Below, one piece after another: positions 34,479 through 39,242 of a stretch of 64,000 nucleotides of DNA. The notes beneath the pieces are model-generated. The model worked only from the letters and a program-made list of their open reading frames with translations. It made no database searches and had not been told where the DNA came from. Source of the stretch: Escherichia phage ST2; the sequence record OM982647, one strand, 5' to 3'. The translations under genes and the position numbers were made by a program. The first letter of the stretch is position 1. Every line of letters begins with the position of its first letter.

Positions 34479-37400
34479 ATGGCTACTTTAAAACAAATAC
34501 AATTTAAAAGAAGCAAAACTGCAGGAGCACGTCCTGCCGCTTCAGTATTAGCCGAAGGTGAATTGGCTATAAACTTAAAAGACCGTGTACTTTTTACTAA
34601 AGATGACCAAGGAAATATTATTGATCTGGGTTTTGCTAAAGGCGGTAGTATTGACGGGAATGTTATTCATACAGGCAATTATAACCAAACTGGCGATTAT
34701 ACTTTAAATGGGGTCTTCACTCAGACTGGTAATTTTAATTTAACCGGTATTGCTCGAGTAACTCGTGATATTATTGCCGCTGGGCAGATTATGACTGAAG
34801 GCGGAGAACTTATTACAAAAAGTTCGGGTACAGCGCATGTTCGTTTTTTCGATGGCAATAGTCGCGAACGTGGAATCATTTATGCCCCGGCTAATGATGG
34901 ATTAACTACACAAGTACTTAATATCAGGGTTCAAGACTACGCCGCTGGTAGCGAAAGCACTTATGCATTTTCAGGCAGTGGCCTATTTACTTCACCTGAA
35001 GTATCAGCATGGAAATCTATGTCAACTCCTCAGATTTTGACTGACAAAGTCATTACAGACGGGAAGAAGACAGGCGATTATGATATCTATTCATTATCAA
35101 ATAACACTCCAATGGCAGAAGGCGAAACGGCTATTAACCACCTCCGTGTTATGCGAAATGCTGTAGGAGCAGGTATTTTCCACGAAGTTAATGTTAATGA
35201 CGGAATAACCTGGTATTCCGGAGATGGACTTGACACTTATCTTTGGTCGTTTAACTGGGCCGGTGGATTGAAAGCCGGTCATTCTATTTCTGTAGGTCTT
35301 CCAGGCGGCCCCAAAGGATATTCTGAATTAGGAACGGCCTCAATTGTTCTTGGGGATAATGATACCGGGCTAAAATGGCATCAGGACGGATATTTCTATA
35401 CAGTAAACAACGGAACAAAAACTTTCATCTATGGTCCAGGAGAAACGCAAAGCCTTAGAAAAATGGTTATGGCTTATTCTCCAGATGGGCTTCTTATGAC
35501 AACGCCGCCGACAGAAAACTATGCTTTGGCTACTGTTGTTACTTACCATGATAATAATGCGTATGGTGACGGTCAAACTCTTTTAGGATATTATCAAGGT
35601 GGTAATTATCATCATTATTTCCGCGGCAAGGGTACCACAAACATTAATACTCATGGCGGTTTGTTAGTTACTCCAGGTAATATTGATGTTATTGGCGGTT
35701 CTGTTAATATAGATGGTAGAAATAATTCTTCTACACTAATGTTTAGAGGCAACACAACAGGATACAGCTCGGTTGATAATATGGATATTAAAGTTTGGGG
35801 TAATACGTTTGTTGATCCAAGCGGAGGTATCCGTAAAAACATTATGGAAATTTCTGATGCAACTAGCTGGATGAGCTATATTCAAAGACTTACTACTGGC
35901 GAAGTAGAAATGAACGTTAATGGTTCATTTGAATCATCTGGTGTTACTGCTGGAGATAGAGGAGTTCACACAACAGGTGAAATTTCATCTGGAGCAGTGA
36001 ATGCTCTTCGTATTTGGAACGCAGATTATGGAGCCATTTTTAGACGTTCAGAAGGAAGTCTTCATATTATTCCAACTGCTTATGGCGAAGGCAAAGATGG
36101 CGATATCGGTCCACTTCGCCCGTTTAGTATGGCTTTAGATACCGGTAAAGTTACTATTCCAGATTTACAATCAAGTTACAATACGTTCGCTGCGAACGGC
36201 TATATTAAATTTGTTGGCCATGGTGCAGGCGCAGGTGGATATGATATTCAATATGCCCAAGCGGCTCCTATTTTCCAAGAAATTGATGATGCTGAGGTAA
36301 GCAAATATTATCCTATTGTTAAGCAGAAATTTTTACAAGGAAAAGCAGTTTGGTCTTTAGGTACTGAAATTAATTCAGGTACATTCGTGATACACCATAT
36401 CAAAGAAGACGGGACTCAAGCTCATACATCAAGATTTAATGCTGACGGTACAGTTAATTTCCCTGATAATGTTCAGGTTGGTGGCGGTGAAGCTACTATT
36501 GCTCGAAATGGTAATATCTTCTCCAACATTTGGAACGTATTTACCTCTGCTGGTGATATAACCAACATTCATGATGCCATTGCCTCCCGTGTGGCTAAAG
36601 AAGGCGACACGATGACAGGTAAGTTGAGTATTAATGCCCCAGACGATGCTTTAGTATTAAATGCTCCTAGTGCAACTAACTCATCTCATATTCGTTCGAC
36701 TGTCGCTGGAGCAAATAGCTGGTTCATAGGTAAAGGTGGAGTGTCAGACACCGTATCTTTTTATAACTATAAGTCCCAGACAGGTATAGATATATCAGCA
36801 GAAGGTAATATTTCATTTAACCCACAATCGGGTAACCTGGTCAGCATGAGCCAGAACCGTATGTATGTTAACGGCGAAAGATGGGTGGCCACAAACCAAG
36901 GTGCAATTAATGTGCAATACGGCGTTGAAGCTCCAGTATTTGTTAACTTAGGCGAGTTAAATGGTAACGTATACTATCCATTGATAAAGGGTCGAAGCTC
37001 TTCCACCGGATATGGTTACCTAAGTAGTGTTGAGCTTGGCCAATTACGTACAGGTGACAATAACTGGGGTATTGGTTGTATAATTGTTCGCTCGGCTGAA
37101 AATACACCAGAACAAGGACATCCGGCAGCAGTATACCAGTTTGACGCTAGAGGTAACTTTAGTGCTCCAGCCGGGGTTTATTCGAACGTTAATATGGGCA
37201 TTGGCACTATTCCTGTATGGGGTGGTCCATCTCTTGCAATCGGCGACAATGATACTGGATTTGTATGGGAAGCAGACGGTATTTTCAACGCATATGCAAA
37301 CGGCCAAGGTGTGTTTAGTTTTAGACCTGGTTTAGCTCAGACATTCGGTAATGTTAACTTCCACTGTAATGCAGGTATGTATGTTCGTGATAACATTGAT

Positions 37401-37742
37401 GTTAACGACGTTTATATTCGTTCTGATATTCGTTGTAAGTCGGAAATTAAGCTTATTAAGAACGCTCAAGAGAAATCTAAACTATTGGGCGGTTATACTT
37501 ATCTGCTTAAAAACTCTGTTACAGACGAAGTTAAACCGTCCGCAGGTTTAATTGCTCAGGAAGTTCAAGAAGTATTACCTGAACTTGTTTCTGAAGATAA
37601 AGAGACCGGACTGCTTCGTTTGAACTATAACGGTATTATTGGTTTAAATACAGCTGCAATAAACGAGCATACAGATGAAATCAAGGAATTGAAATCTGAA
37701 ATTACCGAATTGAAAGCATTAATTAAATCATTGATAAAATAA
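34479..37742 (+). CDS. 37: Long tail fiber distal subunit with C-terminal intramolecular-chaperone-like domain
   Basis: 1087 aa; C-terminal ~105 aa carries SDIRCK and GLIAQEVQEVLPELV motifs typical of auto-cleaving chaperone domains. Confidence 0.8.
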   Translation: MATLKQIQFKRSKTAGARPAASVLAEGELAINLKDRVLFTKDDQGNIIDLGFAKGGSIDGNVIHTGNYNQTGDYTLNGVFTQTGNFNLTGIARVTRDIIAAGQIMTEGGELITKSSGTAHVRFFDGNSRERGIIYAPANDGLTTQVLNIRVQDYAAGSESTYAFSGSGLFTSPEVSAWKSMSTPQILTDKVITDGKKTGDYDIYSLSNNTPMAEGETAINHLRVMRNAVGAGIFHEVNVNDGITWYSGDGLDTYLWSFNWAGGLKAGHSISVGLPGGPKGYSELGTASIVLGDNDTGLKWHQDGYFYTVNNGTKTFIYGPGETQSLRKMVMAYSPDGLLMTTPPTENYALATVVTYHDNNAYGDGQTLLGYYQGGNYHHYFRGKGTTNINTHGGLLVTPGNIDVIGGSVNIDGRNNSSTLMFRGNTTGYSSVDNMDIKVWGNTFVDPSGGIRKNIMEISDATSWMSYIQRLTTGEVEMNVNGSFESSGVTAGDRGVHTTGEISSGAVNALRIWNADYGAIFRRSEGSLHIIPTAYGEGKDGDIGPLRPFSMALDTGKVTIPDLQSSYNTFAANGYIKFVGHGAGAGGYDIQYAQAAPIFQEIDDAEVSKYYPIVKQKFLQGKAVWSLGTEINSGTFVIHHIKEDGTQAHTSRFNADGTVNFPDNVQVGGGEATIARNGNIFSNIWNVFTSAGDITNIHDAIASRVAKEGDTMTGKLSINAPDDALVLNAPSATNSSHIRSTVAGANSWFIGKGGVSDTVSFYNYKSQTGIDISAEGNISFNPQSGNLVSMSQNRMYVNGERWVATNQGAINVQYGVEAPVFVNLGELNGNVYYPLIKGRSSSTGYGYLSSVELGQLRTGDNNWGIGCIIVRSAENTPEQGHPAAVYQFDARGNFSAPAGVYSNVNMGIGTIPVWGGPSLAIGDNDTGFVWEADGIFNAYANGQGVFSFRPGLAQTFGNVNFHCNAGMYVRDNIDVNDVYIRSDIRCKSEIKLIKNAQEKSKLLGGYTYLLKNSVTDEVKPSAGLIAQEVQEVLPELVSEDKETGLLRLNYNGIIGLNTAAINEHTDEIKELKSEITELKALIKSLIK

Positions 37743-37772: not shown

Positions 37773-38552
37773 ATGGCAGTAGTAGGAATCCCTGGTTGGA
37801 TTGGGACCTCAGCCGTTGCTGAAACGGGTCAAAGATGGATGACGGCTGCTTCAAGGGAACTTCGTTTAGGAAACCCTTCATGGATGTCCCAATTCGCGGG
37901 CCGTTCAAGAGAAATAATTCATACACTTGGTGCAGACCATAACTTTAACGGACAATGGTTCCGAGATAGATGTTTTGAGGCAGGTAGTACACCTATAGTG
38001 TTTAATATCACTGGAGATTTAGTATCATATTCTAAAGATGTTCCTTTATTCTTCATGTACGGAGATACACCGAATGAATATGTTCAGTTGAATATACACG
38101 GCGTAACGATGTATGGACGTGGGGGTAATGGCGGTAGCAATAGTCCTGGCTCAGCTGGAGGTCATTGTATTCAAAACGATATTGGTGGGAGACTAAGAAT
38201 TAATAATGGTGGAGCTATTGCAGGCGGCGGTGGCGGCGGTGGCGGCGGTATATATGGCAGACTATCATTTGGTGGTGGCGGTGGTCGTCCATTTGGTGCT
38301 GGTGGGTCTTCCTCTCATATGGGTGCTGGTGCAACCGCTGGCACCATTTCCGCTCCGGGTGCAGGATCTGTCGGTGAGGGGTCTCTTTGGGTATATACAG
38401 GCGGGAATGGCGGCGAAGTTGGCTCTGCAGGAGGAAGATGTAATATTCATGGTAACGGCACAGAATATAACGGCGGCGGTGCTGGTTATGCTGTTATAGG
38501 GTCTGCTCCAACGTGGATAAATGTTGGAGCAATATATGGTCCAAGAGTATAA
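37773..38552 (+). CDS. 38: T2-type receptor-recognising adhesin gp38
   Basis: 259 aa; N-terminus [15 protein letters not shown]...; C-terminal poly-Gly motifs separated by variable segments. Confidence 0.8.
38223..38249 (+). repeat. Perfect (GGCGGCGGT)x3 tandem repeat encoding Gly9 within gene 38
   Basis: 27 bp exact triplication. Confidence 0.8.
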
Positions 38553-38582: not shown

Positions 38583-39242
38583 ATGGCAACACCAAAAGTG
38601 TCATTTTCGCCTAGTGATATTCTATTTGGGTTGCTAGATCGTATTTTCAAAGATAACGCTACTGGAAAGGTTTTAATGTCTCGAGTAGCGGTAATTATTC
38701 TTTTGTTCCTAATGGCACTAATATGGTACAAAGGAAGTATTTTGCTGGATTATTATGTAAGAGCTAAGTATGATACTTATACTGAAATAATCCAAAAAGA
38801 ACGAGCTTTACGTTTTGAATCTGCGGCTCTAGAACAACTGCAAATAGTTCATATCTCATCTGGTGCAGATTTTAGTGCTGTGTATTCTTTCAGACCTAAA
38901 AACTTAAATTATTTCGTCGACCTTATAGCTTATGAAGGCAAACTACCTAGCACAATTTCTGAAAAGTCCCTTGGCGGATTCCCGGTGGATAAAACGGCTA
39001 ATGAATATATAATTCATTTAAGTGGCCGTCATTTCTCATCTAAATCAGAATTTGCATTTTTGCCTACAAAATCTAAGACCGCCGAACTTTCTTATATGTA
39101 TAGTTGCCCATACTTTAATTTGGATAACATCTACGCTGGAACTGTGACGATGTATTGGTATAAGGGGAATAATATACTTGAGGAGGAACGCTTAGCGGCT
39201 ATATGCAACCAAGCGGTCCGAATACTAGGAAGGGCTAAATAA
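38583..39242 (+). CDS. t: Holin
   Basis: 219 aa; MATPKVSFSPSDILFGLLDRIFKDNATGKVLMSRVAVIILLF... as T4 T; single TM then periplasmic domain. Confidence 0.9.
   Translation: MATPKVSFSPSDILFGLLDRIFKDNATGKVLMSRVAVIILLFLMALIWYKGSILLDYYVRAKYDTYTEIIQKERALRFESAALEQLQIVHISSGADFSAVYSFRPKNLNYFVDLIAYEGKLPSTISEKSLGGFPVDKTANEYIIHLSGRHFSSKSEFAFLPTKSKTAELSYMYSCPYFNLDNIYAGTVTMYWYKGNNILEEERLAAICNQAVRILGRAK

Follow-up and report, generated by a model that had tools for sequence, protein, structure and literature searches.

Does a perfect tandem repeat in a phage adhesin gene act as a source of host-range variation, or is it an ordinary part of the protein's structure? The question is raised by 27 bp at positions 38223–38249 of the window, the whole 64,000-nucleotide stretch of Escherichia phage ST2 DNA (OM982647) that was analysed. 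An initial annotation, made from the letters alone, described these bases as an exact triplication encoding nine glycines inside an adhesin gene and called them prone to slippage. It proposed that gain or loss of units would change a glycine loop in the receptor-binding domain, a possible built-in mechanism of host-range variation. Sequence, structural and comparative evidence was used here to assess each part of this proposal.

The repeat and the gene that carries it

Read directly from the window, 38223..38249 is GGCGGCGGTGGCGGCGGTGGCGGCGGT, that is, three copies of GGCGGCGGT with zero mismatches, and Tandem Repeats Finder reports the same interval with period 9, 3.0 copies and 100% matches. 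The repeat is in the codon frame of the ORF at 37773..38552 on the + strand ((38223-37773) mod 3 = 0). It makes up codons 151–159 of this 259-aa ORF, every one of which encodes glycine (Gly151–Gly159). The initial description of the DNA was therefore accurate, both as to the exact triplication and as to the nine glycines. From base composition, 2.6e-6 27-mers of such periodicity are expected by chance in 64 kb, and the repeat is the single lag-9 run of at least 14 bases in the window. Given nine glycine codons, the probability of a perfect three-codon period is 7e-4 when codon frequencies are taken from the gene's own glycines, and rises to 9e-3 under the bias for GGC and GGT that the run shows across relatives. 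The periodicity of the DNA is somewhat above what the protein sequence demands.

The identical 27-mer is also present in phages BF15, vB_Eco-B1.1 and G2133. Strings that differ from it by one codon are found in several further lineages, beside differing types of downstream hypervariable segment, and even in contigs with only 65% protein identity. The repeat had been noticed earlier, without interpretation, in two GenBank records: a repeat region is annotated at the same site in phages kvi (L047, MN850615, 752-777) and vB_Eco_TB34 (OX001802, near 132741-132934), in the latter as '3.1 copies of ACCGCCGCC'.

The features of the locus are listed below.

34479..37742, + strand: gp37-type distal long-tail-fibre subunit, 1087 aa (Pfam Peptidase_S74, Gp34_trimer and gp37_trimer; synteny with PhAPEC2 gp37)
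37773..38552, + strand: gp38 receptor-recognising adhesin of the T2/T6/S16 type, 259 aa (Pfam, PDB and AlphaFold2)
37773..37898, + strand: N-terminal attachment domain of gp38, aa 1-42, docking on the gp37 tip (Pfam Gp38_N)
38223..38249, + strand: putative polyglycine-II (PGII) helix 3, or GRM2 run, encoded by the three copies of the 9-bp unit
38250..38270, + strand: hypervariable segment 2 (HVS2), I160-F166, IYGRLSF, the equivalent of receptor loop B
38271..38285, + strand: next glycine-rich motif, GGGGG, aa 167-171, then RPFG
38583..39242, + strand: holin t, the downstream neighbour of gp38 (Pfam Phage_holin_T, 5e-92)

The product of 37773-38552 is a T2/T6/S16-type gp38 by all of the tests run, namely protein families, gene order, glycine motifs and modelled fold, and the repeat does lie in an adhesin gene as first described. 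The Pfam families GP38 (PF05268; 6e-68, 229.4 bits) and Gp38_N (PF21721; 6e-21, 74.6 bits) were both matched far above the cut-off of 25 bits. The closest PDB entries are 9v85, the PP01 gp38 receptor-binding domain (3e-77), and 6f45_D, the S16 gp37-gp38 tip (1e-53). The gene order gp37-gp38-t is shared with BF15, PhAPEC2 and other annotated relatives. W9 and W22 of gp38 are invariant among 46 homologues. Conserved glycine motifs alternate with hypervariable segments in the C-terminal domain of 121 aligned gp38 proteins, in which HVS2 is a variable block flanked by two conserved glycine runs. In the gp38 homologue alignment, G167-G171, R172, P173 and F174 are near-invariant. The upstream gp37-type protein carries a C-terminal intramolecular chaperone domain (Pfam Peptidase_S74, 8e-12, aa 982-1037), and its fibre tip is capped by gp38. 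The 3' end of the gp37 gene (window 37676-37740) contains imperfect 21-bp and 12-bp tandem repeats of its own, which encode a heptad-like tail, ...EIKELKSEITELKALIKSLIK, of this chaperone domain.

Two further ORFs overlap the specificity domain of gp38, one of 97 aa at 38206-38499 (+ strand, other frame) and one of 61 aa at 38265-38450 (- strand). Both are probably by-products of the G+C-rich glycine codons. They were set aside because the Pfam- and structure-supported gp38 frame accounts for the region.

The 20 kb around gp38 are 97.5% identical to Mosigvirus PhAPEC2. The window gp38 is identical to that of PhAPEC2 (L055, 11785-12573) only for aa 1 to ~108, after which the specificity domain is different; the C-terminal domain is closest to the Tequatrovirus phages BF15, vB_Eco-B1.1 and G2133. 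With a PhAPEC2-like N-terminal part and a Tequatrovirus-like C-terminal domain, the window adhesin is therefore itself mosaic, and its specificity domain appears to have been swapped across genera, Tequatrovirus-like on a Mosigvirus backbone. FL12 falls in the same cluster as the window adhesin, and FL18 and FL20 fall in related clusters. These three are OmpA-dependent "type 2" adhesins (PMC12032242), and by similarity to them the receptor of the window gp38 is likely OmpA.

A protein-guided scan of bacterial contigs, with one genome per species, returned zero relatives of the window adhesin. Adhesins of the gp38 type were also seen on ~110-kb and ~224-kb contigs labelled Salmonella, E. coli or Shigella (L012-L014, L027, L028 and L032-L035; clusters of P0037, P0042, P0046 and P0102). 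In the case of L032-L035, the neighbours of the adhesin gene are not T-even-like: a 73-aa ORF lies upstream and small ORFs downstream, and neither gp37 nor holin t was called. This suggests that the adhesin module also circulates beyond typical T-even phages.

The glycine run in the folded protein and among relatives

In the HMMER alignment, G151-G158 of the window gp38 fall on residues 151-158 of S16 gp38, residue for residue, and G159 falls on S16 F159. The run plus the variable segment that follows it amounts to 16 residues in both proteins. In S16, 151-GGGGGGGG-158 is "helix 3", a long polyglycine type II helix within a central glycine-rich motif whose saturating main-chain hydrogen-bond network forms a three-layered "polyglycine sandwich", and the hypervariable segments are the distal receptor-binding loops (PMC6851490). 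The alignment indicates that Gly151-158 correspond to this long central helix and that Gly159 leads into the distal loop. To judge from its position, the run would be GRM2 of the five-motif scheme of Trojet et al.

An AlphaFold2 model of gp38, built on 46 homologues, has a mean pLDDT of 87. Residues 151-160 are modelled at a pLDDT of ~97 and receive neither alpha nor beta assignment, as would be expected of an ordered PGII helix but not of a flexible loop. Foldseek matched the model to 9v85 (E 2e-25, TM 0.85) and 6f45_D (E 3e-21) and returned no other significant match; the predicted structure is a three-domain fold with a polyglycine sandwich. The "Gly-loop" of the initial annotation is thus better described as a helix, and the receptor loop, HVS2 or loop B, begins only after the run. 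In PP01 gp38, the 13 residues right after the run (158-170) are loop B, which is essential for adsorption, and the mutation Y159A, at the first residue past the run, abolishes infection (PMC12892980).

Conservation of the run was assessed in 46 diverse homologues. G153-G156 are invariant, and conservation is 90% or higher at G152 and G157. The block has Ser or Ala at its start, or Ala at its end, in some gp38 types, and Ser- or Ala-capped blocks occur in 16 of 120 cluster representatives. Position at this site therefore counts more than pure glycine composition. Trojet et al. (PMC3157838) screened for T6 phages with the whole of GRM2, GRM3 or GRM4 deleted and recovered none (0/220).

The number of glycines at the site among the 120 cluster representatives is nine in 55, eight in 36, seven in 7, six in three and four in three, and the length of the run tracks the type of hypervariable segment that comes after it. 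None of these representatives exceeds nine glycines; the 12-residue alleles described below were revealed by span lengths in the isolate table. Nine glycines are present in 136 of the 141 sampled cluster members that cover the region, a sample from ten clusters at >=90% identity whose listed members are not random. A 207-nt query across the site was used to survey isolates and yielded ~41 distinct records of the window adhesin type at 75-95% identity, spanning Tequatrovirus and the RB49 group of Krischvirus. None of these ~41 records shows a net length change across the site; Ac3 is the sole record with a span unlike the query, and its extra codon is located elsewhere than the run. Likewise, no unit-number variant was found among H1-H16. 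Exact-pattern scans of IMG/VR for alleles of 2, 3 and 4 units together with the upstream flank gave zero matches, even for the 3-unit control, and therefore carry no information on repeat number. The initial annotation had named invariance of repeat number across many isolates as the outcome that would count against its proposal. With ~41 isolates without net change and nine glycines in 136/141 relatives, this is nearly what is found in the phage's own lineage, and for the window phage a dedicated host-range mechanism is unlikely on this comparative evidence. Purifying selection presumably explains the constancy of the run length.

The codons that encode the run are less constant than its length. 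Across the 38 loci examined, 23 distinct codon strings occur. Of these, 18 have nine codons, and nearly all combine GGC with GGT; the scrambled string of LYE-01, for example, is GGC GGC GGT GGC GGT GGC GGC GGC GGT. At silent sites, the mean pairwise difference within the run amounts to 0.37, compared to 0.22 at other glycine codons (resampling P 0.011) and 0.17 at other four-fold sites (resampling P 0.001); the neighbouring GGGGG motif is likewise raised, at 0.40. The comparison covered 13 gap-free 780-bp genes, in which sites are non-independent and genes are mosaic, and the silent diversity is therefore read only as a sign of faster turnover in the run while its length stays constant.

The run has a G+C content of 89% in a genome of 38%. 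This composition, together with the almost exclusive use of GGC and GGT across relatives, might suggest a role at the nucleic-acid level, either as a G-rich structure or as a codon run that pauses translation to aid folding of the sandwich. However, the G tracts are just two bases long, codon order is freely scrambled in relatives, and nothing in the data demands such a role, which we regard as highly improbable.

Length variants and recombination at the glycine motifs

The length of the run is not absolutely fixed, as 12-residue isolates and gp38 types with 7 or 8 residues at the site demonstrate. The longer alleles belong to a T6-like sister group. SHFML-26 of this group has three units, GGC GGC GGT twice followed by GGC GGC GGA. 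Compared to it, PYps14T and AV121 carry an extra GGC GGC GGT, giving four units and 12 glycines in genes that are 97-98% identical, and PYps32T also has a 12-residue block. The +9 bp change is thus present in 3 of ~54 distinct isolates of the sister group. All three isolates with 12-residue blocks form plaques, and infection therefore tolerates a helix that is presumably lengthened by one turn. The repeat-number comparison therefore gives different answers by lineage, with constancy in the window type and unit gains in its sister group.

PYps14T (MT526905) and PYps15T (MT515752) come from the same aviary and the same year. Their only differences over 992 bp are the 9-bp unit and an indel of 3 bp; there are 0 substitutions. 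Of 128 Y. pseudotuberculosis strains, 78 were lysed by PYps14T and 85 by PYps15T, and PYps14T also lysed all nine Y. pestis strains; the same study reported gp38 indels and differing host ranges, did not localise the indels and made no causal test (PMC8762354). A loss of the same size is seen in metagenomic L031, which lacks 9 bp of the run and otherwise matches L032/L033 at 771/771 positions. Run length also varies by -1, -2 or -3 Gly within further near-identical pairs, and the changes other than 9 bp are -1, -2 and -5 Gly. A 6-Gly allele comes from SRR21291524. Contractions in the window adhesin type are rare and come only from metagenome-derived sequences, and short metagenomic contigs with length variants could carry errors. 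Roughly eight independent length events were distinguished, of which four or five are +/-3 Gly exactly.

A PGII helix has three residues per turn, and the 9-bp unit therefore corresponds to one turn. Such a one-turn unit may account for the excess of +/-3 Gly changes among viable variants. At the DNA level, exact self-homology of the window allele extends over 18 nt at lag 9 and over no more than 5 nt at lags 3, 6 and 12, so that slippage would be expected to yield 6- and 12-Gly alleles. We infer that slippage, and not recombination, makes the +/-9 bp alleles. In-frame unit changes of the kind foreseen by the initial annotation thus do occur, with +9 bp in PYps14T, AV121 and PYps32T and -9 bp in L031. 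The annotation is partly supported in this respect: the tract appears capable of slippage and lies beside a critical receptor loop.

Several related changes were observed outside the run. PYps55T (L064, 9168-9977), compared to PYps2T (L066, 11273-12070), has a 9-bp tandem duplication in GRM1, which converts RGGQGGW to RGGQGGQGGW, and one extra residue right after the helix-3 run. Duplication of a 9-bp unit is hence not limited to the run. D5505 has lost one glycine from the next motif, not from the run. The gp38 of HP3 (P0180), with a frameshift after 8 Gly, was considered as a slippage product and rejected: the paper on the passage from HP3 to HP3.1 lists two SNPs genome-wide and none in gp38. 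The frameshift is a probable sequence or annotation error and was left out of the counts. [quoted passage not shown] The +9 bp alleles of cultured PYps14T, AV121 and PYps32T arose on an allele of the (GGCGGCGGT)n type, the -9 bp allele of L031 lies in an otherwise identical gene, and the unit difference between PYps14T and PYps15T coincides with host ranges of 78 and 85 of 128. The 18-nt self-homology, the functional importance of loop B and the raised silent-site turnover agree with this reading as well. However, three units are far below the numbers of classical contingency loci, no unit-number variant appears in the ~41 isolates or in H1-H16, and close relatives keep nine glycines. Many relatives have scrambled, non-periodic strings of equal length, so periodicity itself is not maintained, and the PYps host-range differences are small and confounded. 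We consider a contingency-type repeat unlikely, and the built-in host-range mechanism of the initial annotation is unproven in a lineage where the site is near-invariant.

The opposite reading holds that the periodicity is incidental: a GGC/GGT mix happened to fall in a three-codon pattern, probably in an old allele spread by recombination, and the rare length variants are products of unequal homologous recombination, either between co-infecting phages or among glycine motifs, and not of slippage of 9-bp units. A perfect period has a probability of ~1% per allele under run-specific codon usage, and 23 alleles were seen. The same or nearly the same string stands beside different HVS2 types and in 65%-identical contigs, as spread by recombination would predict. 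Changes of -1, -2 and -5 Gly also occur, several length variants lie at lineage-switch junctions, and the allele on which the L031 deletion occurred had only 8 nt of lag-9 homology. Against this, the +9 bp alleles are exact unit copies without a flanking lineage switch (0 substitutions between PYps14T and PYps15T), and half or more of the length events are of exactly three glycines. We consider the incidental reading rather unlikely.

Recombination at the glycine motifs is evident in the alleles. By BLAST, the best-matching parent lineage of L052, L053 and L054 switches exactly at the run. In the case of L053 and L054, the run is fused straight to the next glycine motif and HVS2 is gone. The cultured phage PYps47T (L060, MT515755, 101-937) has the reciprocal of this fusion, an in-frame 54-bp tandem duplication bounded by glycine motifs, which takes in HVS2 together with portions of the run and of the next motif and results in two copies of the YYSPFSQMRLTF loop. 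The motif at 38271..38285 would thus be the site that partners the run in unequal recombination events. GRMs have been proposed as recombination hotspots (Tetart 1998; Trojet 2011, PMC3157838). The run fits this model, with mosaic junctions inside a conserved glycine motif, and shortened runs are also found where recombination has deleted or duplicated the hypervariable loop next to them.

Alleles without HVS2 were seen in L053 (601-1317) and L054 (601-1251), from Logan SRR30543803 and ERR14716713, and also in P0023, P0027 and P0030; the contigs that carry them are 26-29 kb long, and gp37 and holin are intact on them. T6 phage without HVS2 was not recovered by Trojet et al. (PMC3157838). Either these alleles represent defective genomes or assembly artefacts, or some gp38 types tolerate the loss of loop B. 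Within its subgroup, PYps47T is the phage with the narrowest range on Y. pseudotuberculosis (52/128).

A probably ordinary structural motif and its relation to known systems

The reading that we favour, with good though not complete confidence, is that the repeat consists of the codons of the longest PGII helix of gp38, an ordinary structural motif that is also a site of recombination and undergoes occasional changes in length. The all-glycine rod would occupy a central position in the polyglycine sandwich, hydrogen-bonded to its neighbours, and serve as a scaffold for the projecting hypervariable receptor loops, with HVS2 or loop B predicted to start at about residue 159-160, after the rod. 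The stretch of (GGY)9 is a short low-complexity island conserved between otherwise diverged gp38 alleles, and acts as a crossover point at which specificity modules are exchanged, deleted or duplicated. Occasionally the run gains or loses codons; on a perfect-repeat allele the change should be a whole 9-bp unit, or three glycines and one PGII turn. Selection on the fold would then return the population to the modal nine residues in the window adhesin type. Changes in run length, where they arise, would presumably reposition loop B. The feature itself is a previously described and ordinary motif. The additions from public data are modest, namely the series of 6, 9 and 12 glycines and the loss or duplication of HVS2 mediated by glycine motifs. 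The exact periodicity is unlikely by chance (P 7e-4 to 9e-3), and some process may therefore generate or preserve the repeat.

A further reading can be outlined, although we think it quite improbable. The perfect (GGCGGCGGT)n tract could be a whole-turn length adjuster for PGII helix 3, with 6-, 9- and 12-Gly alleles held as a low-frequency reservoir, a phage analogue of a contingency locus. One PGII turn is ~9 Angstrom long. If this were true, a single 9-bp slip would change the helix by one turn, neighbouring helices would stay in register, and loop B would be pushed out or pulled in, which would give 6-, 9- and 12-Gly adhesins with shifted preferences for receptor or LPS depth.

As a structural motif, the run has practical relevance. 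In most T-even-like phages, host range is set mainly by gp38, and those who engineer therapeutic phages have it as a target. Because the run is a central scaffold helix and not a binding loop, it should be left alone by engineers or altered only by whole turns. Viable 12-residue helices and natural loss or duplication of HVS2 suggest more tolerance of length than was implied by experiments in which whole motifs were deleted. A duplication of the neighbouring loop from unequal exchange between glycine motifs is present in a plaque-forming isolate, PYps47T.

The closest known counterparts are helix 3 of S16 gp38 (PDB 6F45) and the PP01 gp38 receptor-binding domain (PDB 9V85), homologous proteins with which the run aligns residue for residue. 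In each, the strand '...NNGGAIA' of the beta-helix precedes the run, the distal loop follows it, and the same GGGGGRPFG stands downstream. The window run differs from that of S16 in having nine glycines instead of eight, the ninth in place of F159. The following loop is one residue shorter and differs in sequence, and the likely receptor, by similarity, is OmpA, compared to OmpC for S16.

The GRMs of T-even gp38 (Drexler 1989; Tetart 1998; Trojet 2011, PMC3157838) resemble the window run in being conserved at the DNA level among diverged alleles, flanked by hypervariable segments and crossed by mosaic junctions. Those papers treat GRMs as fixed blocks, whereas the public sequences compared here include runs of 6, 7, 8 and 12 residues as well as GRM2xGRM3 fusions and duplications. 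In classical work on Ox2 and K3, changes in host-range mutants were reportedly confined to hypervariable segments.

For T4, Tetart et al. reportedly found in 1996 that host range widened when a small domain of the gp37 tip was tandemly duplicated. The likeness is an in-frame tandem duplication in the tip of a T-even tail fibre by way of short conserved repeats. However, the T4 duplications copy a receptor-contacting segment and are selected for host range, whereas the window unit is pure glycine scaffold.

Bacterial contingency loci are simple-sequence repeats that vary by slipped-strand mispairing. They share with the run perfect tandem units in a surface-recognition gene and polymorphism in unit number, here between near-identical isolates of the sister lineage. 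The run differs from such loci in that it has three units only, its changes are in frame and provide no on/off switch, and the site is invariant in the window lineage.
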